64,000 nucleotides of DNA from Bdellovibrionales bacterium (GTDB lineage Bacteria > Bdellovibrionota > Bdellovibrionia > Bdellovibrionales > JAGQZY01). Below are positions 14,382 to 24,817 of this stretch, piece after piece (within the stretch, counting starts at the first letter, position 1; every line of letters starts with the position of its first letter). The stretch lies in the NCBI GenBank assembly GCA_031426555.1, contig JANPLN010000031.1, positions 1 to 64,000 of the forward strand, written 5' to 3'. The notes under the pieces are model-generated. The model saw only the letters and a list, made by a program, of their open reading frames with translations. It ran no database searches and had not been told where the DNA came from. The position numbers and the translations under genes are program-made.

Positions 14382-14579
14382 CAAAATCTCCTTTGTTTTT
14401 TCGAGAGTTCACAATTTGTGCCCTCGATAAAAACAAAGGTCGTATCAGTGCTTTAAGTTGGTTTGGATCTCGGACATTTGCCAGTTGTAATAACGCTAGA
14501 AAAGGAGCACCATCACGCGTTCGGCTTCAGATCCTTCTTAACCCCTCCAACCACGATAATGCCGGCAGTAAAGAGCGAA

Positions 14580-16223
14580 ATGTCCAAACGGCCGATGGAA
14601 ATTCTTTTGATCGAAGACAATCAGGGCGATATCGAACTGACGCAGACGGCGATTGCCAATCATAAAATACTATCAAATCTCCACGTTGTGAAAACGGGGC
14701 AAGAGGCACTGCAGTTTCTCTATCGCACTGAAAGCTTCGCGAAAATGTTAAGACCCGATTTGATCTTGCTCGATCTAAATCTGCCCGGAATGGACGGACG
14801 CGAAGTCCTAGAGCGAATCAAAACGGATCGCGATCTTCGGCAAATTCCGGTCATTGTTCTCACCTCTGCGCAGGCCGAACTCGATGTCTTGAAATCCTAT
14901 TCCATGGGCGCAAGTTGCTACTTACTGAAACCGGTGGGCCCTGATAATTTTTCTCAGTTAATTCATCATATTCAAGATTTTTGGTGCACTCATGTTCAAT
15001 TGCCAGAGTACGAGTTGATCGAGAAATACAAAATATCTCCGCTTTCATCTGTGCCACTAGTTTTACAAAAAAAGACGTCCGAAGCACCCCTTGAAGTTCT
15101 ATTTATAGAAGATTCAGATGCGGACGCAGACATTGTTTTATCAAGTTTAGACAACTTGCCAAACCCGGGCTTTATCGCGCATCGAGAAATTCGTCTGGAT
15201 GATTCCTTTAAATACCTCGAAAATCATAAACCCGACGTGGTGCTGCTAGATCTTTCGCTCCCCGACAGTGAGGGCTTCGAAACAGTCCTTCGATTTCGTG
15301 CGAGCCATCCCTTTCTTCCCCTAGTGATACTCACTGGAGCGGGCGAAAAGACCTTAGGGGCTCGAGCCATTGCCGAGGGCGCTGATGATTTTTTAGAAAA
15401 GAGCGAAGTTCAAGACGAGCTGTTGGGACGAACTCTGCGCTACGCTATTGAAAGAAAAAACCATGCTCTGGGGCTCTTAGAGGCTTTAACCAGAGAGAAG
15501 GTCGCTCGCAGCGAGGCGGAGAAAGCGGCCGAAATCAGAGATGAGTTTCTTTCCATTGCCTCCCATGAACTTCGCACCCCTTTGACATCACTCAAATTAC
15601 AGGTGGAACTTCTTGTTAGGACTCTCCGGATGGGCGAAAAAGATTTGATCGCAAAAACAGTTGTTCAGGATTTCGCAGTAAAAACGGACGGACATATTGA
15701 TCGATTTTCTAAGCTGATCGATTCCCTTCTTAATTTTTCACAAATCCAATCTGGTCGGCTCAGGCTCGATTATCAAAAATTTGATTTAAACCAAGTCGTG
15801 CGCGATACCTTAGAGCGGTTCACCCCCGAACTTAAAAAAGCAGGCTGTGAATTGACTTTAAATCTGGGTGAGCCGGTCGACGGCGAATGGGATTTGCTTC
15901 GGGTCGAGCAGGTTTTAACGAATCTCATCTCCAATGGAATAAAATACGGCCCCGGTAAGCCCATTACTGTTTCTGTGACCGCAGATGCAGAAAAAGTTTG
16001 GATTCTTGTGAAAGATGAAGGTCCGGGCATTGCAGCCCAAGACAAAGAGAAAATTTTTCAACGCTTTGAACGCGCGCAGATAAATAAAGCGGTGCCGGGA
16101 TTGGGCCTTGGACTTTATGTTGTGAGGCAAATTATTGATACCCACGGAGGCACAATTCAACTGGAGAGTGAACTCGGCGCTGGATCCACGTTTACAGTCT
16201 GTTTACCCCGCAGGAGATTTTAA
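14580..16223 (+). CDS. Hybrid sensor kinase REC-REC-HisKA-HATPase
   Basis: Two receivers (ILLIED..LLDLNLP; VLFIED..LLDLSLP), SHELRTPL H-box, NLISNGIKY, GLGLGL. Confidence 0.92.
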   Translation: MSKRPMEILLIEDNQGDIELTQTAIANHKILSNLHVVKTGQEALQFLYRTESFAKMLRPDLILLDLNLPGMDGREVLERIKTDRDLRQIPVIVLTSAQAELDVLKSYSMGASCYLLKPVGPDNFSQLIHHIQDFWCTHVQLPEYELIEKYKISPLSSVPLVLQKKTSEAPLEVLFIEDSDADADIVLSSLDNLPNPGFIAHREIRLDDSFKYLENHKPDVVLLDLSLPDSEGFETVLRFRASHPFLPLVILTGAGEKTLGARAIAEGADDFLEKSEVQDELLGRTLRYAIERKNHALGLLEALTREKVARSEAEKAAEIRDEFLSIASHELRTPLTSLKLQVELLVRTLRMGEKDLIAKTVVQDFAVKTDGHIDRFSKLIDSLLNFSQIQSGRLRLDYQKFDLNQVVRDTLERFTPELKKAGCELTLNLGEPVDGEWDLLRVEQVLTNLISNGIKYGPGKPITVSVTADAEKVWILVKDEGPGIAAQDKEKIFQRFERAQINKAVPGLGLGLYVVRQIIDTHGGTIQLESELGAGSTFTVCLPRRRF

Positions 16224-16225
16224 AA

Positions 16226-16660
16226 ATGATTCACAAAACAGTCGATGTTCTCTTGGTTGAAGATAGTGAAGCGGATATTGATCTGGTGAGAGAAGCCATC
16301 GAGGGCGGAAAACTGCTTATTAACGTCAATGTGGTTCGGGATGGCGAAGAAGCCATGGACTATTTAAGAGGCCAGGGCAAATTTAAAAACGCCACGCGTC
16401 CCGACTTGGTCTTGCTCGATCTCAATTTGCCTAAAAAAGACGGTCGAGAAGTGCTGCGTGAGGTGAAAGCCGATCCAGCTTTAAGCCTGATTCCCATCGT
16501 CATTCTCACCACGTCTTCTGCAGACGAGGATATTCTTCAGTCCTACCAACTGCATGCAAATGCTTATATTGCAAAGCCGGTGGACTTCGATTCGTTTATC
16601 AAAATTGTCAACCAACTGACCGAGTTTTGGCTTTCTTTAGTTGTTCTCCCAAAAAAGTGA
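16226..16660 (+). CDS. Rcp1/CheY-like single-domain response regulator
   Basis: LLVEDS, LVLLDLNLPKKDGREVL, IPIVILTTS, C-terminal EFWL typical of phytochrome-linked receivers. Confidence 0.92.
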   Translation: MIHKTVDVLLVEDSEADIDLVREAIEGGKLLINVNVVRDGEEAMDYLRGQGKFKNATRPDLVLLDLNLPKKDGREVLREVKADPALSLIPIVILTTSSADEDILQSYQLHANAYIAKPVDFDSFIKIVNQLTEFWLSLVVLPKK

Positions 16661-16667
16661 AGATTGT

Positions 16668-18200
16668 ATGAAACTTGAGATTCAGGCACCCGACTTTAAA
16701 AAAATATTTGAAAATGCACCCAGCATGTATCTGGTTTTACTTCCTGATTCACCAAGATTTACAATTGTGGCGGTCAGTGAGGCCTACTTAAAAGTAACAC
16801 GTCTGACGCGAGATCAAATGGTCGGTCGCAGCCTTTTAGAGGTTTTTCCCATGGATGATCTCAAAAAATCGCTGGATCAAGCCATGAGCACCCGTCTACC
16901 AACAAAAATGACGAACACGAACCCTTTTGGGAGTTCAACCACGACTCCAATTTTCGGTGAGGACGGACAAATTTTAAATTTGGTTTACAATTTAGACGTG
17001 GCTCACCCTGAAGGATCGAAGGATCGAATGATCTTTCTAGAAAACGAGCGAATCCTTTTAGATTCGATCACCGATCTGGCTATTTATTTATTAGATTCCA
17101 GCGGCAGAATTCTGAGCTGTAACGCAGGAGCAGAGAAGATCAACGGTTACTCAAGTTCGGATCTTATTGGAAAAAGCTTTTCAACTTTGTACTCCATGGA
17201 AGAAGTCAAAGAGGGAAAGCCTATTCGTGATTTAGGAAGCGCCCAAGCTCAAGGCAAGTTTGCAGACGTGGTCCATCGCCTGCGAAAAGATGGAACAGAA
17301 TTTTGGTCGAACGTCGTGATCTCGGCCCGTTACGACCAAACTGGGAAGACAATTGGTTTCGTGAAGGTCGTGCGCGATATTTCCCGTCAGAAAGAGGATG
17401 CCCTTGCGCTCGTCGATGCCAGAGGGATGCTCGAAGCTCGCGTTCTTAAGAGAACTCAAGACCTTTTACGATCCAATACGGAACTTGAACAATTTGCTTA
17501 TATCGCCTCCCACGATTTACAAACCCCACTAAGACATGTTTCGTCCTACGTTCAGCTTTTGACCAATAGGATCAAAAAGACCCATACTCTCGATGACAAA
17601 ACAGAAAAGTGGATTGAGTATATCTTAAAAGGCACACAACAGATGAAGAGCTTAATTTCTGATCTGCTCTCCTACTCGCGCATCGGTCGCGTAGATATTA
17701 AAATCGAAGAAATTGATACGGCCGAAGTATTTGCGCACATCATGGACGACCTTCAAGAATCAGTTCGCGCCACAAATGCAAAACTTGTGTACAATAAACT
17801 ACCCCCTATCTTCGGAATTAAATCCCAGATAGAACAACTTTTTCTAAACTTAATCGAAAATGCCATTAAGTTTAGAACTGCCGACATCGCCCCTGTCGTC
17901 ACTATCAGTTGTGAGGATGACGGTGAATTTTGGAGGTTCTCGGTCTCTGATAACGGTATAGGAATCGACCCGAAATACTCCGAAAGAATATTTTTAATGT
18001 TTCATCGACTGCATTCTCAAGATCAGTATTCGGGAACTGGTATTGGCCTCGCTATCTGTAAAAAAATCGTCGAATTTCACGATGGAAAGATCTGGCTGAC
18101 TGCCATAGAAAATAAAGGAGCTATTTTTACTTTCACTCTACCCAAGAAAGAGCGAGTCACCTCGACCAACTTAGTCAAAGACAACCAGCTACCGGCATGA
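16668..18200 (+). CDS. PAS-domain histidine kinase, Cph1/BphP-type kinase core
   Basis: PAS (NAGAEKINGYS..RKDGTEFW), ELEQFAYIASHDLQTPLR, FHRLHSQDQYSGTGIGLAICKKIVE. Confidence 0.92.
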   Translation: MKLEIQAPDFKKIFENAPSMYLVLLPDSPRFTIVAVSEAYLKVTRLTRDQMVGRSLLEVFPMDDLKKSLDQAMSTRLPTKMTNTNPFGSSTTTPIFGEDGQILNLVYNLDVAHPEGSKDRMIFLENERILLDSITDLAIYLLDSSGRILSCNAGAEKINGYSSSDLIGKSFSTLYSMEEVKEGKPIRDLGSAQAQGKFADVVHRLRKDGTEFWSNVVISARYDQTGKTIGFVKVVRDISRQKEDALALVDARGMLEARVLKRTQDLLRSNTELEQFAYIASHDLQTPLRHVSSYVQLLTNRIKKTHTLDDKTEKWIEYILKGTQQMKSLISDLLSYSRIGRVDIKIEEIDTAEVFAHIMDDLQESVRATNAKLVYNKLPPIFGIKSQIEQLFLNLIENAIKFRTADIAPVVTISCEDDGEFWRFSVSDNGIGIDPKYSERIFLMFHRLHSQDQYSGTGIGLAICKKIVEFHDGKIWLTAIENKGAIFTFTLPKKERVTSTNLVKDNQLPA

Positions 18201-18772
18201 ATCCCCCTGATCTTTTCTTAATGTTAAAACAGGAGACCTCGGTGATTCACGAAAAAGTGATGCAGGAATCATGGGCTCAAAGAGTGATGTCCTTGGATTA
18301 CACGCGGCACGAATACAGTGAACTTTTACAAAAATACTATGGCTTCTATTTACCGATCGAATCCCAACTTTTGGATTTTCACACACCGGTATTTCCTCCG
18401 TCTCGAGCAAAGCATAACTTGCTCCAAGAGGATTTAAGTTTTTTAAACTTGGGGCCCTTTTTTGCTCCGGCGATTTGCCAGAAATTACCACAAATCGTTG
18501 ATGTTCCTTCTGCGCTTGGGATTTGTTATGTTTTGGAGGGCGCAACCCTCGGAGGCCAGATAATTTCTAGGCACTTAAAAGACTCTCTTGGCCTTAAGGA
18601 GAACGATGGGCTCAAGTTTTTCCTTGGTTACGGTTCGGAAACTGCAAAAATGTGGAACAGCTTTAAGGCACAGGCTCGAGATATTGTGCGCTCGCCTCAG
18701 GAATCCCATGCCATGTTACAAGCTGCCATAAAAACTTTTAGCTCCCTCTCAGATTGGATGCACACTTCATGA
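18197..18772 (+). CDS. bphO: Biliverdin-producing heme oxygenase (BphO/HemO-like)
   Basis: LKQETSVIH proximal His, YVLEGATLGGQII distal helix, FFLGYG; ATGA-coupled to the phytochrome module. Confidence 0.88.
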   Translation: MNPPDLFLMLKQETSVIHEKVMQESWAQRVMSLDYTRHEYSELLQKYYGFYLPIESQLLDFHTPVFPPSRAKHNLLQEDLSFLNLGPFFAPAICQKLPQIVDVPSALGICYVLEGATLGGQIISRHLKDSLGLKENDGLKFFLGYGSETAKMWNSFKAQARDIVRSPQESHAMLQAAIKTFSSLSDWMHTS

Positions 18773-20235
18773 GTATCAATGACAAAACAACCGAAGAGAT
18801 TATTGACTATCGAGAATGCGAAAAAGAGCCGATTGCCACCCTGGGAACAATTCAATCCTATGGCGGTCTCATCGTGATTCGCGGTGGGGAAGTGATCGCT
18901 TTTTCTAAAAACATCCGGTCATTCCTACCCATCGATTCAAACAACTGCCTTCACAAAAAAGTGAGCGAAGTGAGTCCTGAGCTCTATCAACTGCACAGTA
19001 TGGTTGTTCCCCAGGTTACTTTAGGAAAAACTTTTTTTAAAGATTTTGGTCCATGGATCGTGGGATTTCGAAGAGAAGAGAACGAACTTTTTTATGTCGA
19101 ATTCTTTCCACAGCCGACTCACTTATTTGATCTGCAAGGCCTAGAATTAGAGATCGATCAAATGGGCCGTAAATTTCACTACCCGACCAAGGACCGAGCG
19201 GAATTTTTAAATGAAATCTGTCATATTTTTCAAAAATATTTACGACTGGATCAGGTTTTCGTGCAAGCTCTGAATGAAGGAGAAATTATTGAAGTTATCG
19301 CTGAGGCGAATAATGGGAAAATTGAGCCCGTCTTGGGATTGCACTTTTCCAGTAAAGAAATCCCCAGCCAGGCTCGCGACCTTTATCTTGTACAGCTGAT
19401 TCGCTTTAAGCAAGCGGCACTTGAAGCTCCGGTGGAAATCGTGAGCGAAGAATCGGTCAACTTAACACACTCTTTTTTGCGCGAACCTTCGAAATTTATG
19501 ACAGTTTACATGCAAAATATTTTAGCTTCGACTCTGGTTTCGGCCTCCATTGTCATCGATAAAAAACTATCGGCGCTTTTGACAATGCATAACTCAACAC
19601 CTCTACTATTAGACCCCCGGAGTTTTGAGCGTATCGTTGAACTCGTGCGTAAAGTTTCTTTAGAGCTTTTTCGAGTTGACGATCTGATCAAAAAAAATGC
19701 GGACTCAAAACTGTGGGAACTGCTCAAACAAGATTTTCCACTCAACCGACTCGCAGCCATTGAGAAATTAATTTCCACACCCACATTAAAAAAAGCTCTC
19801 GAGCATACGGGCGCTGTGGTGGTTAAAGACGGTAAGTCCGTGACCAAGGTTGGCGAATGCCCAATGGGTGAGTGTTTAGAGGCCCTCATCCAAAAGACAG
19901 CTCATTGGAACGGATCTATGAATTTCAGCTCCGAACTGACAAAAGATTTTGATCTTTCCGCGACCTTGCTTGGAGACTTTGCGGGTGTGATGAGGATCCG
20001 TTTTGAAGAGATATCTGTTTTATTCTTTAGAAAGAGTTTTCAATCGGAGTTGAAGTGGCGAAGTGCGACCCCCGAAAGCTTCGAGAACGATTCCCACTTG
20101 CCGCGATTTTCGCCTGCTGGATCTTTTCGGTTTTTTATTGAAGAATTCAAAAACCAAAGTCGACCTTGGACAGAAAAGGACGTTGCCTTTGGACACGTCC
20201 TCGCGCAGTGGATCTCGGAAGACTTTGAATCCTGA
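18769..20235 (+). CDS. Stand-alone, divergent bacteriophytochrome photosensory module (PAS-GAF-PHY, no output domain)
   Basis: CEKEPIATLGTIQSYG, GLHFSSKEIPSQARDLY, LREPSKFMTVYMQN, FFR..LKW..PAGSF..QSRPW; stop right after the PHY helix. Confidence 0.85.
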   Translation: MSINDKTTEEIIDYRECEKEPIATLGTIQSYGGLIVIRGGEVIAFSKNIRSFLPIDSNNCLHKKVSEVSPELYQLHSMVVPQVTLGKTFFKDFGPWIVGFRREENELFYVEFFPQPTHLFDLQGLELEIDQMGRKFHYPTKDRAEFLNEICHIFQKYLRLDQVFVQALNEGEIIEVIAEANNGKIEPVLGLHFSSKEIPSQARDLYLVQLIRFKQAALEAPVEIVSEESVNLTHSFLREPSKFMTVYMQNILASTLVSASIVIDKKLSALLTMHNSTPLLLDPRSFERIVELVRKVSLELFRVDDLIKKNADSKLWELLKQDFPLNRLAAIEKLISTPTLKKALEHTGAVVVKDGKSVTKVGECPMGECLEALIQKTAHWNGSMNFSSELTKDFDLSATLLGDFAGVMRIRFEEISVLFFRKSFQSELKWRSATPESFENDSHLPRFSPAGSFRFFIEEFKNQSRPWTEKDVAFGHVLAQWISEDFES

Positions 20236-20267
20236 ACTCGCGGGTCCTATTATCTGTGGACTAAAAT

Positions 20268-20654
20268 TTAGGCGATGAGCGTGCGAATCGTATTTAGCAA
20301 AAGATCGATTTTGAACGGCTTTTTTATAAAGGCCTGGGTTTCAATTTTATCCATTTGATGCTCTTCATTGGCGGAACAGGCAATCACCGGAATTTGACGA
20401 ATATTTTCCATGGTTTTTTTTATTTCAATAAACTGCCACCCATTTAAGTCTGGCATCATCACATCCATAAGGATCAAGTTTGGAGCTGGGTTTATTTCCA
20501 ACAGATTGAGACCAACTCTGCCGTTCTCCGCTGTAAAAACTTTATATCCTTCGATTTCTAAGAGCTGCTGGACCAGCTCTCGGATGTAAAGGTCATCTTC
20601 GATAAGTAATATTGATTTTTGTTCATCTTTTTGCAATTTACATACCTCTGGCAT
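20268..20654 (-). CDS. CheY-like response regulator
   Basis: ILLIEDD, ILMDVMMPDLNGW, IKKPF. Confidence 0.9.
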   Translation of the reverse strand: MPEVCKLQKDEQKSILLIEDDLYIRELVQQLLEIEGYKVFTAENGRVGLNLLEINPAPNLILMDVMMPDLNGWQFIEIKKTMENIRQIPVIACSANEEHQMDKIETQAFIKKPFKIDLLLNTIRTLIA

Positions 20655-20705
20655 CTAATTGGTTATGGGTTCAGCGTAGCACATAATTGATCAAGAAACG
20701 AGCAC

Positions 20706-20942
20706 TTATATCAGCTCGCTTTTCTTTAGTCCTCGTTGTTTTATGACCCATTCGACCATTGCCCCCAAAACGGGTTCTAAAGACTTTCCCATAGACGTTA
20801 GCGTGTATTCAGTTTTTGGCGGGACCACAGGATATTGTTTTCTCGAAACGAGCCCACTTTGCTCAAGCTCTTTGAGTTGATGAGAAAGCATTCGATCACT
20901 GATTCCCGTCGTTAGTTTTCTTAACTCAGAAAATCTTTTGGT
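20706..20942 (-). pseudogene. 5'-truncated HxlR-family regulator
   Basis: TKRFSELRKLTTGISDRMLSHQLKELE...VPPKTEYTLT; in-frame stop just upstream, N-terminal helices missing. Confidence 0.8.
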
Positions 20943-21402
20943 TGACGAGGCCTGGGTTCAAAATGCCTATCTTCCTCTTGATCAACAAAACCCTGAGGCT
21001 TTGGCTGTTTCTAACGAGCTCACTCAAGAGTTCATCGATTCAGATTACATTGTGATCGGAATGCCAATGTACAATTGGGGTGTTCCCGCGAGTGTAAAAG
21101 CTTGGATCGATCAAATTGTAAGGGCTGGACTGACATTCCAAATGACCTCTGAAGGAATTAAGGGACTAGCAGATCCCCATAAAAAAGTGATTGCTCTGGT
21201 TGCTCGCAATGGCAGGTTTCTTACTGGCGAGCCCTATGAAGGAGCGAACTTTCAAGACCCCTACTTAAAAGGCATCATGGGATTTTTAGGCGTCAAACAA
21301 GTTTATGTCGAAGCACTTCAAGATGTTTTTAACCACGAAAATTTTGAGCGCGATTTAGCGCAAGCCATTGAACGCGTTAAGACTCTCGCAAAGAATATTT
21401 AG
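20938..21402 (+). pseudogene. azoR: 5'-truncated FMN-dependent NADH-azoreductase
   Basis: PMYNWGVPASVKAWIDQIVRAGLTF motif; N-terminal flavodoxin strand and FMN loop absent; no RBS. Confidence 0.75.
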
Positions 21403-21482
21403 TTCCGTTGGCTATACTGGGCAATTCCTTGCGGACAATGGATCAATTCTTTGGTAAGTTTGTCGTCAACAAAAGGAAAATT

Positions 21483-21893
21483 ATGAAACTCGCTGATAAA
21501 GGTCCAATCGTGAAACCACCAGTTTTAAAAGGCTTAGCGCAAAACCTTTCGGTAAAAATTCAATCGTGGCCTGAAGTTATTTCGGCCACACATTGGACTA
21601 TTGGCGATTCGACAAAAGTGAACGGTGCAGATTTTTATGTCCTAGAGAGCGAACTTGGTCACATTCATCTTGACGGCGAGATACACCTTCGGCTGACAAA
21701 GGCGCTTTGCAAATCGTTGGTCTCGGCCAAACTGGCTGAAGCGTTTCCATGGGGACAGGACTGGGTGCAGTTTCGAATAACAAATCAGGCAAGCTTAGAT
21801 CATGCCGAGTGGCTCTTTCGTTTAGGCTACGACAGATTGCAAGGCCGAACTGATATCAGTATCCAGCAAAGAATCAGCGGTAAAATGTCTTAA
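21483..21893 (+). CDS. DUF5519/luciferase-like family protein
   Basis: ELGHIHLDGEIHL...WVQFRI...AEWLFRLGY; ATG after AAGGA. Confidence 0.65.
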   Translation: MKLADKGPIVKPPVLKGLAQNLSVKIQSWPEVISATHWTIGDSTKVNGADFYVLESELGHIHLDGEIHLRLTKALCKSLVSAKLAEAFPWGQDWVQFRITNQASLDHAEWLFRLGYDRLQGRTDISIQQRISGKMS

Positions 21894-21902
21894 TCGGTAA
21901 CA

Positions 21903-21930
21903 AGCCTCACCCGAAAGGTGAGGCTCTTTT
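21903..21930 (+). terminator. Intrinsic terminator
   Basis: AGCCTCACC-cgaaa-GGTGAGGCT then CTTTT, between convergent genes. Confidence 0.8.
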
Positions 21931-21933
21931 GAT

Positions 21934-23544
21934 TTACTGAACGGATTCAGGATTCCGCATGATCAAGATCGCCGCCATCACTTTTGGCAGGTAATCTTTG
22001 TCACCCTCATGACCGTTGCGAATGAGAGTCCACGCATCTCTTGAACCAAGAGCGTTCATCCCTTTCTGAACTGCATTTTCGCCCATGTTGTAGGCGAGAG
22101 CTGAAAGATGCCAGTCTTTAAATCGCAAATTGTTGGACTGAAGATACCGCATCGCTGCGTCTGTGTTCAGCCCCACATCCAGGCGTTCGTCTTTCTGACT
22201 GTCCACCCGCAAGCCGTAATTTCTTGCGGTTCCAGGAATGAATTGCCAGATACCAGCGGCTTTCATTGAGGTGTTGTGGTTCTCAGTTAAGTTCTGATAG
22301 CCCGATTCAATGATGGGTACAGCCATGATTTCCGCAGGCAAGCCATACTTCTGCAGATGTTCACTGACGGTCACTTTGTAATTCTCCATGCGAGCCAACG
22401 AATCTCGCATGAACTCGCGGCCCTCGGGTGTACCGATGTAGCGGTTGAGTTGCTTGAGTACGAGATCATTGACGACAACGGGGAATCCCGTTTCACTCTG
22501 GGCGCGAACGGCCATTGCTTTGGCTTGTGCCATGTTCACTCGGCGATCTTGAACCAGTCCTTTGGATGCAAAGGCTGTGGCCCCCATGATCGATACAAGT
22601 AGTACCCCCACAGAAACGCTGATCGAGCTTCTAATTCTGTTTGATGATTTTGCTAACATTTTTTCAATCCTCCTCTTAAGGATATTGCGTTCAAGCAAAA
22701 ATGTGAGACCTGTCGCGCAAACAGGAACATACTTTTGATCGATTGCGGTTTGCGCCACCTCGACGAGGCAGCGAGCATATGCCTGAGACTCGACTTTATT
22801 TTGGTCGACCAGAGTCTCATCGCAGGCAAATTCTTGAATCTCTGAGATCCAACAATTCCAAAAATAAATAGCGGGGTTCATGATGCAAATGATTCGCATC
22901 CCCCACATGACATAAACCCACTGAGTATCACCGTGACGGTGATGCTGAAGTTCATGGGTAACCGCCATCTTATAGTCTCTGCGACGCTCAACTAGTGACG
23001 AGGGTACAACAATGTTCGCCTGGCCCGGCAACCAGTACGAAAACGGCACTTGAATGGCATCGTTAACTAAAATACGAACACGCCCCAGTCTCCTCACCAA
23101 AAACGAGTTCTTCTTTGTTTTATATAAAATTCTGAGATCACGGCCAATGAAAAGTCCTCCCAAGATCAGTACCATTGCACCCAAAATGCCCCAGGTGAAT
23201 GCCACCTGATCTACCTTGAGTGTGGATGTCCCCAGTGGCGTGGACAGACTGAGAAAGCCGCCTTTGTCGGAAGCTGTGTAATCTCGCCCGAAACTTTTGA
23301 TCGATTGGGCCGACCATACTTTTGCGGCAGGAGAAAAGACTTCGTTTTTTGGGAGCAATGGATGAATCACGGTCAGAATCAAAACAGTCGTCATCACTGC
23401 ATAGTGAAGTCGGAGCTCTGTTCCCGCACCCAAGCTGGTCTTTGCTCTTCTCACTGCAAATGAAAAAAGACTCAGGCCTGCAAACCCAATCAGAATCAAA
23501 AGATTCATGTTTAAATAAGTGGAGAGGACTTGGGCCAAGCTCAC
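21934..23544 (-). CDS. BlaR1-type M56 peptidase fused to a MltD-like lytic transglycosylase (SLT) domain
   Basis: TM helices, HELQH, NP..W..EFACD, LKRRI (M56); then IESGY, AAGIWQFIPGTARNYGL, LAYNMGE (SLT). Confidence 0.9.
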   Translation of the reverse strand: MSLAQVLSTYLNMNLLILIGFAGLSLFSFAVRRAKTSLGAGTELRLHYAVMTTVLILTVIHPLLPKNEVFSPAAKVWSAQSIKSFGRDYTASDKGGFLSLSTPLGTSTLKVDQVAFTWGILGAMVLILGGLFIGRDLRILYKTKKNSFLVRRLGRVRILVNDAIQVPFSYWLPGQANIVVPSSLVERRRDYKMAVTHELQHHRHGDTQWVYVMWGMRIICIMNPAIYFWNCWISEIQEFACDETLVDQNKVESQAYARCLVEVAQTAIDQKYVPVCATGLTFLLERNILKRRIEKMLAKSSNRIRSSISVSVGVLLVSIMGATAFASKGLVQDRRVNMAQAKAMAVRAQSETGFPVVVNDLVLKQLNRYIGTPEGREFMRDSLARMENYKVTVSEHLQKYGLPAEIMAVPIIESGYQNLTENHNTSMKAAGIWQFIPGTARNYGLRVDSQKDERLDVGLNTDAAMRYLQSNNLRFKDWHLSALAYNMGENAVQKGMNALGSRDAWTLIRNGHEGDKDYLPKVMAAILIMRNPESVQ

Positions 23545-23942
23545 TTGCGACCACCCGCTTGATCAATCAAGTGCTTCAACTCCAGCAAATCTTTTTCATC
23601 CAATTTGACAGAGTCGAGAAGCTGGCGCACCAGCGCCACTGGCGTTCCGTCAAAAACACGGTCAACAACATGTCTCACTGCCTTGGCTTCGTAAGCATTT
23701 TTTTTGAGCTGGGGAGTATAGATATGACCTCGCCCTTCTTTGCGAGTTTTTAAAATCTCTTTCTGCTCTAAGATCCGAAGGATCGTAGAAACTGACGTGT
23801 ACGCAAGATCTCGTTCTTTTGGCAGTTGCTCGAGCACGTCTGTAACAGACCCCTCACCTAGTTTCCAAAGAATGCTCATCAGCTCCAATTCGGTTTCGGT
23901 CAACAGTTTGCCATCGGCTTCTTTGTGCTTTGCTTTTTTCAT
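23541..23942 (-). CDS. BlaI/MecI/CopY-family repressor
   Basis: LTETELELMSILW, LAYTSVSTILRILEQK, VFDG; 4-bp overlap with the M56 gene. Confidence 0.92.
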   Translation of the reverse strand: MKKAKHKEADGKLLTETELELMSILWKLGEGSVTDVLEQLPKERDLAYTSVSTILRILEQKEILKTRKEGRGHIYTPQLKKNAYEAKAVRHVVDRVFDGTPVALVRQLLDSVKLDEKDLLELKHLIDQAGGRK

Positions 23943-23967
23943 ATATCCCCCCACATTTAAAAGACTA

Positions 23968-24003
23968 ACTAAGAGTTTAGTAGTTAACAACTAAAAACTT
24001 AGT
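23968..24003. promoter_or_regulatory. Twin palindromic operator, candidate BlaI-family sites
   Basis: ACTAA-gagt-TTAGT (23968) and ACTAA-aaac-TTAGT (23990), 22 bp apart, just upstream of the repressor. Confidence 0.7.
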
Positions 24004-24076
24004 TACCAGGACTTTAGGTGAAAAGACCTTGAACATGGCTTCCAAATGTTTACCATATTCTTTTACGGGGGATTTA

Positions 24077-24817
24077 ATGGACGATATTCTTTTTGCTCGC
24101 ACCTTTATGATTGTTGGTGCGATGCTCATCCTGACAGCGATCACCGCAAAAAAGAATCGTGTCTTTGAAACTTCGGCTGAGATGTGGATAACAGTCATAG
24201 CCTCCTTTGCCCTCCTCTTTGCGGTGATGGGGTTTGCCAATCAATTTCCAATCAACCTTATTTTAGTGGGCGCCTTTTCATTAGTTATCGGCTGGAGTAT
24301 CGGCCCCACCATCGAATATTTTGGAACTCGCTTTAAACTGCGTAAGTTTTTAAAGGATAAAGGCACCCCACTCAAAAAAGCGGGAACCGCCACGCCAGAA
24401 CAATTGGCAGACTTTAATAATTCTTTTGATAAACTGAATTATCACAACGAGTGGCAAAATATTGTCACGCAGGCTTTTTTGGGGACGGCCCTTGCGGTGA
24501 TTGCAACGGCATGCGTGGTGTTTACAACGGACATTAATTTTGATTTTTTAGGCGGCTTTTTATTTATCGCTCTCCTTATGCTTGTAGTTATGGGATTGAT
24601 TAATGCCTTTTTTATAAAGTCGAAAATGGTCTCTCTGGTAAAAGCCTATGTGGGAGCAATTATATTCACCCTTTATCTTCTTTATGACTTTAACCAACTT
24701 GAAAAAAAGGCCGGAGATGAAAGTTGGGCGACCGCTGTTAACATTTCCGTTAACATCTACCTCGATATTATTAATCTATTTTTAGATCTGCTCGAAATTT
24801 TATCTGAAACTGACTAA
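24077..24817 (+). CDS. Bax inhibitor-1/YccA family membrane protein
   Basis: YLLYDFNQL...AVNIYLDIINLFLDLL-type C-terminus. Confidence 0.85.
   Translation: MDDILFARTFMIVGAMLILTAITAKKNRVFETSAEMWITVIASFALLFAVMGFANQFPINLILVGAFSLVIGWSIGPTIEYFGTRFKLRKFLKDKGTPLKKAGTATPEQLADFNNSFDKLNYHNEWQNIVTQAFLGTALAVIATACVVFTTDINFDFLGGFLFIALLMLVVMGLINAFFIKSKMVSLVKAYVGAIIFTLYLLYDFNQLEKKAGDESWATAVNISVNIYLDIINLFLDLLEILSETD

Follow-up and report, generated by a model that had tools for sequence, protein, structure and literature searches.

Introduction

Signal transfer in bacterial phytochromes is explained through a continuous helix that runs from the PHY domain into the kinase. The closest described systems are the canonical bphO-bphP(-bphR) operons and the Cph1-Rcp1 and CphA-RcpA pairs, with DrBphP and PaBphP among their photoreceptors. 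Sensors that stand alone also occur: H-NOX is encoded together with HnoK, a kinase regulated in trans, and PixD, with its partner PixE, and the short LOV/PYP proteins are further examples. Among bacteriophytochromes, the passages of a review that deal with RpBphP1 and BrBphP1 describe proteins without a kinase that signal to the repressor PpsR2 by protein contact. Here we analyze a six-gene locus (14531-20713, genes on both strands) in a 64,000-nucleotide stretch of a Bdellovibrionales genome (the window; assembly GCA_031426555.1, contig JANPLN010000031.1, positions 1 to 64,000). It encodes a PAS-GAF-PHY photosensory module that ends in the PHY exit helix, together with a heme oxygenase (HO), two histidine kinases, and two single-domain receivers, and its limits are those of DNA similarity to a second genome of the order, G157.

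An earlier note, made from the DNA letters, described this locus as a split phytochrome-like operon in which the module acts in trans on separately encoded kinases, and as a candidate for an undescribed system. We find that the module belongs to a clade whose members all lack an output domain, and that the six genes have traveled together. Our preferred reading, for and against which we see the case as evenly balanced, is that of a mobile six-gene cassette in which HO supplies biliverdin and the stand-alone module controls the PAS-containing kinase (PAS-HK) by protein contact, not through a fused output helix. A natural system cut exactly in the PHY-kinase helix would show how much of the signal passes by surface contact.

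Results

A Photosensory Module That Ends after PHY

The module (488 aa counted from its ATG; 18769-20235, + strand) is recognized in Pfam through PHY (PF00360, 62.3 bits, cut-off 27) and PAS_2 (PF08446, 27 bits, cut-off 21.4). The PAS_2 match covers profile positions 1-55 of 107 only, and the scan of the module returns no GAF domain match; together, these gaps signal the divergence of its sequence. In a phmmer search, module residues 14-478 align to residues 9-485 of PaBphP (8e-27), with DrBphP, Agp2, and others as the next matches. An AlphaFold2 model computed with 28 sequences (pLDDT 83.9, pTM 0.78) matches the solved photosensory modules of PaBphP, Agp1, DrBphP, PsBphP, and RpBphP3 in Foldseek at TM-scores of 0.67-0.80. 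By this alignment and the modeled fold, the 488-aa protein is a real phytochrome photosensory module, GAF domain included. The domain calls of the earlier note stand for PAS_2, PHY, the kinases, and HO; GAF has no Pfam match and PAS_2 is partial, and it is the modeled fold that bears out the PAS-GAF-PHY assignment.

The polypeptide ends 10 residues past the last residue aligned to PaBphP position 485, and it carries no HisKA, HWE, or other output domain. By this alignment, the break lies within the very helix that leads on to the DHp domain in fused phytochromes. The absence of a kinase frame behind the PHY helix, as described earlier, is confirmed: the stop codon of the module (20233-20235) is followed by 32 bp and then by the stop codon of a convergent receiver gene, REC2.

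A word-indexed search returns 17 proteins of this type, 484-511 aa long and 45%-100% identical, all of them stand-alone; fused phytochromes are the next matches, at 22%-26% identity to the module, and a search restricted to longer proteins gives no fused form above 25% identity. An 18th member, 79% identical, occurs in G157 and is absent from the matches listed by the word-indexed search, on which the size of the clade rests and which therefore missed at least one member. The 17 members align end to end, with ends that fall within a few residues of each other and a conserved C-terminal tail, W-I-S-E-D-F-E-S. A quick maximum-likelihood tree was computed from 35 selected rows, namely 17 members of the clade, 15 canonical hits, and 3 stand-alone modules taken from genomes (midpoint root, long branches). 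It recovers the clade as monophyletic (SH-aLRT 100) at the end of a very long stem and places four other stand-alone modules at two other positions among the fused forms. The module is naturally output-less, and the lack of an output domain is clade-wide, across 18 members.

The earlier note had allowed that all close homologs might be full-length fusions and this copy a recent truncation. The 16 relatives at 45% identity or more are all 484-511 aa long and stand-alone, and a recent truncation was rejected on the lack of a close fused relative, the shared ends, and purifying selection. The reading of the module as such a truncation, a decaying remnant of a full-length bacteriophytochrome kinase with no function of its own, could draw on the position of the end, exactly in the helix that continues into the kinase in fused forms, and on the GAF domain missed by Pfam. 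We consider it very improbable in view of the common end and conserved tail in 17 of 17 members, a dN/dS of 0.22, the lack of any kinase remnant behind the module, and the low identity (26% at most) of the closest fused form.

Phytochrome modules dimerize, and the module could thus pair, in mixed dimers, with a full-length phytochrome from another locus of the genome. This we find hardly credible, as the genome is 100% complete by marker count and its single PHY match is the module itself; on that ground a second phytochrome as dimer partner was rejected. In addition to this one PHY match, genome-wide searches return one HO (PF01126) and only two Rcp-type receivers. The cassette is a self-contained set that holds the one PHY, the one HO, and both Rcp-type receivers of the genome.

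A Rebuilt Pigment Pocket

Pocket positions were compared by aligning the 17 members of the clade to 11 canonical relatives, with numbering via the alignment to PaBphP; the canonical residues are named by their DrBphP numbers. The biliverdin-attachment cysteine, Cys17 (aligned to PaBphP Cys12), is present in 17 of 17 members, as are Ile198, Pro199, Arg212, Arg238, Tyr247, Ser258, His274 (His290 in DrBphP), and Ser452. The clade therefore keeps Ile198-Pro199 of the DIP motif, and it also keeps Ser452-Phe453 of the tongue. Bilin binding by the module is likely, because the cysteine and the propionate-binding arginines are invariant and the sole HO gene of the genome is translationally coupled to it.

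Four hallmark positions are replaced. Tyr176 has become Gln in 17 of 17 members (Gln166 of the module). Asp207 of the DIP motif is Glu in 16 of 17 (Glu197) and Asp in the remaining one; His260 is Met in 15 and Leu in 2 (Met244); and the Arg of the PRxSF motif is Ala in 11, Ser in 4, Gly in 1, and Glu in 1 (Ala450). The canonical Tyr, Asp, His, and Arg are each retained in 11 of 11 canonical relatives. Furthermore, the WGG motif reads W-R-x in the clade. Passages on pocket mutants in two sources (PMC4658570; bioRxiv 10.64898/2026.03.03.708993) report that mutation at these positions blocks or distorts Pfr formation in DrBphP and ReBphP: substitutions of the DIP Asp abolish Pfr, DrBphP Y176H prevents it, His260 variants stall at a Meta-Rc-like state, and some such pocket variants bind protoporphyrin IX. 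Taken with the four replacements, these mutants make classical red/far-red switching by the module doubtful. The clade is a natural experiment on four residues thought to be indispensable for Pr/Pfr conversion, and as such bears on the design of near-infrared fluorescent proteins.

The same pocket suggests another role, in which the phytochrome scaffold would have been re-used to sense bilin, or possibly heme or porphyrin, independently of light and to inform the kinases about HO turnover (heme, oxygen, or iron status). The clade-wide replacement of residues that canonical relatives keep, the published loss of Pfr and the binding of protoporphyrin IX by some variants (in the same passages), and the translational coupling of the module to the sole HO of the genome all argue for such a sensor. 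The thioether cysteine, His274, the propionate-binding Arg212 and Arg238, and Ser452-Phe453 are kept, however, which fits a working bilin pocket with its tongue; Glu is a conservative replacement for Asp, which one member retains; and a role of Met244 as heme ligand cannot be general, as 2 of 17 members have Leu there. We regard a light-insensitive sensor as possible, if somewhat doubtful.

Kinases, Receivers, and Heme Oxygenase

Four genes precede the module on the + strand. They encode a REC-REC-HisKA-HATPase_c hybrid kinase (RRHK, 547 aa; 14580-16223), the single-domain Rcp-type receiver REC1 (144 aa; 16226-16660; Response_reg alone in Pfam), PAS-HK (510 aa; 16668-18200; H-box FAYIASHDLQTPLR), and HO (191 aa; 18197-18772). 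On the - strand, REC2 (128 aa; 20268-20654; Pfam REC 1.7e-19) is a convergent single-domain receiver. The open reading frame (ORF) list, the Pfam scan, and the junctions themselves agree with the earlier description of five co-directional, tightly coupled genes followed by a convergent receiver. RRHK and REC1 are joined by TAA-aa-ATG (a 2-bp gap) and REC1 and PAS-HK by TGA, 7 bp, and ATG, while the PAS-HK/HO and HO/module junctions are ATGA overlaps. A promoter and terminator scan does no better than chance (10 found where 10.9 are expected, and 9 where 8.8 are).

The name PAS-HK needs one amendment: the kinase assignment stands, and Pfam finds two PAS domains where the earlier note counted one (PAS-PAS-HisKA-HATPase_c). 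Its kinase core was described as BphP-like, and a PDB sequence search agrees, with DrBphP second-ranked among solved chains (8f71, 1.5e-42; DrBphP 8sgk, 1.4e-33; HK853, about 1e-29). The RRHK kinase core is nearest to HK853 (about 1e-33) in the same type of search, and by these similarities the PAS-HK core is predicted to be the more BphP-like of the two kinases. The PAS-HK family is very large, with 7971 hits at an E-value of 1e-20 or better, and close orthologs (53%-79% identical) are few. These orthologs come in three forms, N-PAS+PAS+HK, PAS+HK, and N-PAS+HK, and what is invariant is the coiled coil, the DHp domain, and the catalytic core. In blastn, the segment of the window at 16685-17040, which is the first PAS of PAS-HK, is missing from G157, an insertion/deletion difference between the two.

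REC1 is Rcp1-like, as the earlier note had it: the PDB sequence search gives 1.8e-45 for 5te9, 5.2e-44 for RcpA, and 1.8e-38 for Rcp1, compared with about 1e-10 for CheY. The first REC of RRHK is also of the Rcp type, matching a DrBphP-response-regulator fusion (8avv, 1.2e-40, with the N-terminal REC as the best stretch) and RcpA (1e-30). It is the sole paralogue of REC1 in the genome, at 43% identity. A 56-nt direct repeat with 79% identity (14754-14809 and 16400-16455) reflects this paralogy at the DNA level and suggests a duplication inside the cassette.

HO matches PF01126 with an E-value of 3.1e-15 (57 bits, cut-off 23). Its His18 aligns with the proximal His25 of HO-1; the position of HO-1 Asp140 is occupied by Ala, the compared chain being itself variant there. 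By family profile and proximal His, it is a putative BphO-like heme oxygenase.

Gene Order in Other Genomes

Direct synteny rests on three loci: the window, G157, and locus L003. The combination of HO, stand-alone module, and PAS-HK, for which the earlier note had suggested a search, is found as a whole operon in G157 and as a distant version in L003. The order in G157 is that of the window, with protein identities of 82% for RRHK, 90% for REC1 (cut by a contig end), 79% for a short PAS-HK, 84% for HO, 79% for the module, and 81% for REC2. L003 is the most distant verified member (module 49% and HO 47% identical). It encodes a 452-aa HK whose kinase core is 41% identical, an 817-aa hybrid of REC-REC-PAS-HK-REC architecture (48% identity between its first REC and REC1), HO, and the module, the last two again joined by an ATGA overlap. 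A pattern scan of GTDB species genomes gives only two loci besides the window, and pattern scans of metagenome contigs give no further locus. Among 201 sampled genomes of the order, the clade occurs in two, this one (G000) and G157. In addition, for 6 of the 16 listed module relatives, the longest contig is equal in size to that of a PAS-HK ortholog 53%-71% identical (9486, 16825, 100908, 109338, 6359, and 8749).

Transfer as One Unit

In blastn, 14531-16600 of the window matches G157 contig C221 at 83.2% identity, and 16611-16684 and 17041-20713 match a second G157 contig (L002) at 89% and 81.8%, respectively; the two G157 contigs abut within REC1, and there is no match beyond 14531-20713. 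The cassette is therefore 82%-83% identical in DNA between genomes of two families of the order, whose PurA proteins are 55% identical. The stretch at about 14423-21903 of the window is without a DNA match in all five genomes of the same genus, and the closest of them, G049, matches the flanks at 90%-92% identity. The six genes have moved horizontally as one unit, REC2 included, because the identity of the cassette DNA is set against the divergence of PurA, the cassette is absent from all five same-genus genomes, and its occurrence is patchy. We find no terminal direct or inverted repeats flanking it.

In comparison with G157, four of the genes are under purifying selection, with dN/dS values between 0.15 and 0.24: HO (dN 0.091, dS 0.615, dN/dS 0.15), REC2 (0.099, 0.510, 0.19), the module (0.127, 0.581, 0.22), and PAS-HK (0.134, 0.567, 0.24).

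The surroundings of the cassette differ on its two sides. Directly left of the boundary lies a gene for a 23S rRNA intervening-sequence protein (PF05635; 14049-14384), which is found in the same-genus genome G073 at 83% DNA identity. On the right, a fragment of an HxlR-type regulator (20706-20957, - strand; profile positions 17-86 of 91, no start codon) and a Flavodoxin_2 fragment (20938-21402, + strand; profile positions 51-196 of 198) stand head to head, both without their 5' ends, and 20706-21402 has the appearance of a scar left by a deletion at the right-hand cassette edge. The next gene (21408-21893) encodes a 161-aa protein with a Luciferase-domain match (PF17648, E 5e-13); it lies in the stretch missing from the five same-genus genomes and outside the similarity to G157. 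Further on, 21934-24817 holds a BlaR1-like M56 peptidase fused to an SLT transglycosylase domain, with a BlaI-type repressor, and the gene arrangement there differs in G121.

Discussion

In the reading we prefer, HO would make biliverdin, which the module would bind at Cys17, and the holo-module would modulate PAS-HK by contact. PAS-HK would in turn phosphorylate two Rcp-type receivers, REC1 and the first REC of RRHK; phosphorylation of the latter would set the activity of RRHK, which would act on, or relay to, REC2. Because the four Pr/Pfr residues are replaced throughout the clade, we expect the signal to lie in the bilin-loading state or in a light response of an atypical kind, and not in classical red/far-red switching. 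A module that signals by contact in this way would give a ready-made two-part switch, driven by red light or by bilin, for optogenetics.

Several observations weigh against this scheme. The action of the module in trans on the kinases is suggested by gene neighborhood, which by itself says little about contact. Neither PAS domain of PAS-HK is universally kept, which leaves no evident conserved docking domain beyond the kinase core. The PHY tongue (about residues 431-455) is poorly defined and of low confidence in the model. The pocket changes are such that the module may not be a light switch at all. The six modules with size-matched contigs probably sit on one contig with a PAS-HK ortholog, and the link made by size is an indirect one. 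Finally, L003 lacks a match to REC2, and to that extent the cascade as proposed is not conserved in its last step.

The receivers could themselves be the targets. The module might act by binding or sequestering one of the single-domain receivers, REC1 or REC2, in the manner of PixD with PixE, or by protecting them against dephosphorylation; three receiver-bearing genes in the cassette, the co-transfer of REC2, and the variable N terminus of PAS-HK fit this idea. In L003, however, REC2 has no counterpart and REC1 exists only as a fused domain, and we judge an action on receivers improbable. A bolder form of the contact reading, which we put forward as rather unlikely, joins all the unusual features: a split phytochrome with a rebuilt Gln/Glu/Met/Ala pocket would either undergo a photocycle that differs from Pr/Pfr, in which case it might be a near-infrared fluorescent bilin protein of natural origin, or sense bilin or heme loading, and would in both cases drive a two-kinase phosphorelay solely by contact, the whole being a plug-in cassette among lineages of predatory bacteria.

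Related designs occur in the same order. A PHY search across the 201 genomes gives 27 matches in 18 of them, about nine being open frames of 515-543 aa. In G137 (L033, 7459-14405), a 1600-aa CheB-CheR-PAS-HK-REC kinase is followed by a stand-alone canonical PAS_2-GAF-PHY module and then HO; G152 (L035, 8525-14950) has the same type of 1600-aa kinase with a stand-alone canonical module. Like the locus studied here, these operons from Bdellovibrionales combine an output-less module with a separately encoded kinase, and in G137 with a coupled HO. Their modules (523-529 aa) differ in that they retain Tyr176, Asp207, His260, PRxSF, and WGG, give normal Pfam GAF hits, lie elsewhere in the quick tree, and pair with a 1600-aa methylation-type kinase instead of Rcp-type receivers. 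The L035 module has Tyr at the position of the biliverdin-binding Cys. A third stand-alone canonical module, of 506 aa, is found in G069 (L034, 5565-9586), followed by an 825-aa ORF on the same strand. A protein atlas furthermore holds PAS_2-GAF-PHY clusters with representatives of 489-514 aa and 383, 175, and 84 members, which may include fragments. The repeated occurrence of output-less modules in Bdellovibrionales, both canonical and altered, suggests that predatory bacteria have a form of light or heme sensing that has yet to be studied.

In the literature searched, which leaves subscription journals outside, we find no paper that describes natural phytochrome modules lacking an output domain or any phytochrome from Bdellovibrio, and no characterized pair of a phytochrome module and a kinase of the H-NOX/HnoK kind. 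Going by their titles and abstracts, papers on phytochromes with "no output domain" or "PSM-only" phytochromes appear to concern engineered truncations. The system thus has no description in that literature, as the earlier note had supposed, while its split design recurs in other Bdellovibrionales, where the neighbors are CheB-CheR kinases.

Engineered phytofluors and locked variants (Cph1/DrBphP Y176H, DrBphP D207H/L, WiPhy, and iRFP) resemble the clade in that the same pocket positions are substituted. Those changes are laboratory-made, whereas here they are natural, combined, and conserved across a clade, and the Gln/Glu/Met combination is not met in the published passages on pocket mutants that we consulted.

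RpBphP1 and BrBphP1 offer a precedent for the proposed contact, in that a bacterial phytochrome signals to a separate protein, PpsR2, by binding. They have a canonical pocket and a transcription factor as target, and reportedly carry a C-terminal PAS/PAC and helical output part; here, nothing follows PHY, and the candidate targets are kinases. With H-NOX/HnoK, the locus shares a small, cofactor-binding, output-less sensor in an operon with a histidine kinase, the fold and the cofactor being different.

The likeness is closest to the canonical bphO-bphP systems, Cph1-Rcp1, and CphA-RcpA. As in these, HO is encoded together with a knotted PAS-GAF-PHY protein bearing an N-terminal Cys, an Rcp-type receiver is adjacent (RcpA, 5e-44), and a DrBphP-like kinase core is present in the operon. 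In contrast to them, the kinase is here encoded apart from the module, as a PAS-PAS protein, and the photosensory polypeptide stops within the PHY exit helix; Tyr176, Asp207, His260, and the PRxSF Arg are replaced; and the unit adds a second kinase with two receivers, as well as a further receiver. Together, these comparisons place the locus as modified phytochrome two-component signaling, not as a new kind of system, whose most distinctive features are its rebuilt pocket and its cassette-like mobility.

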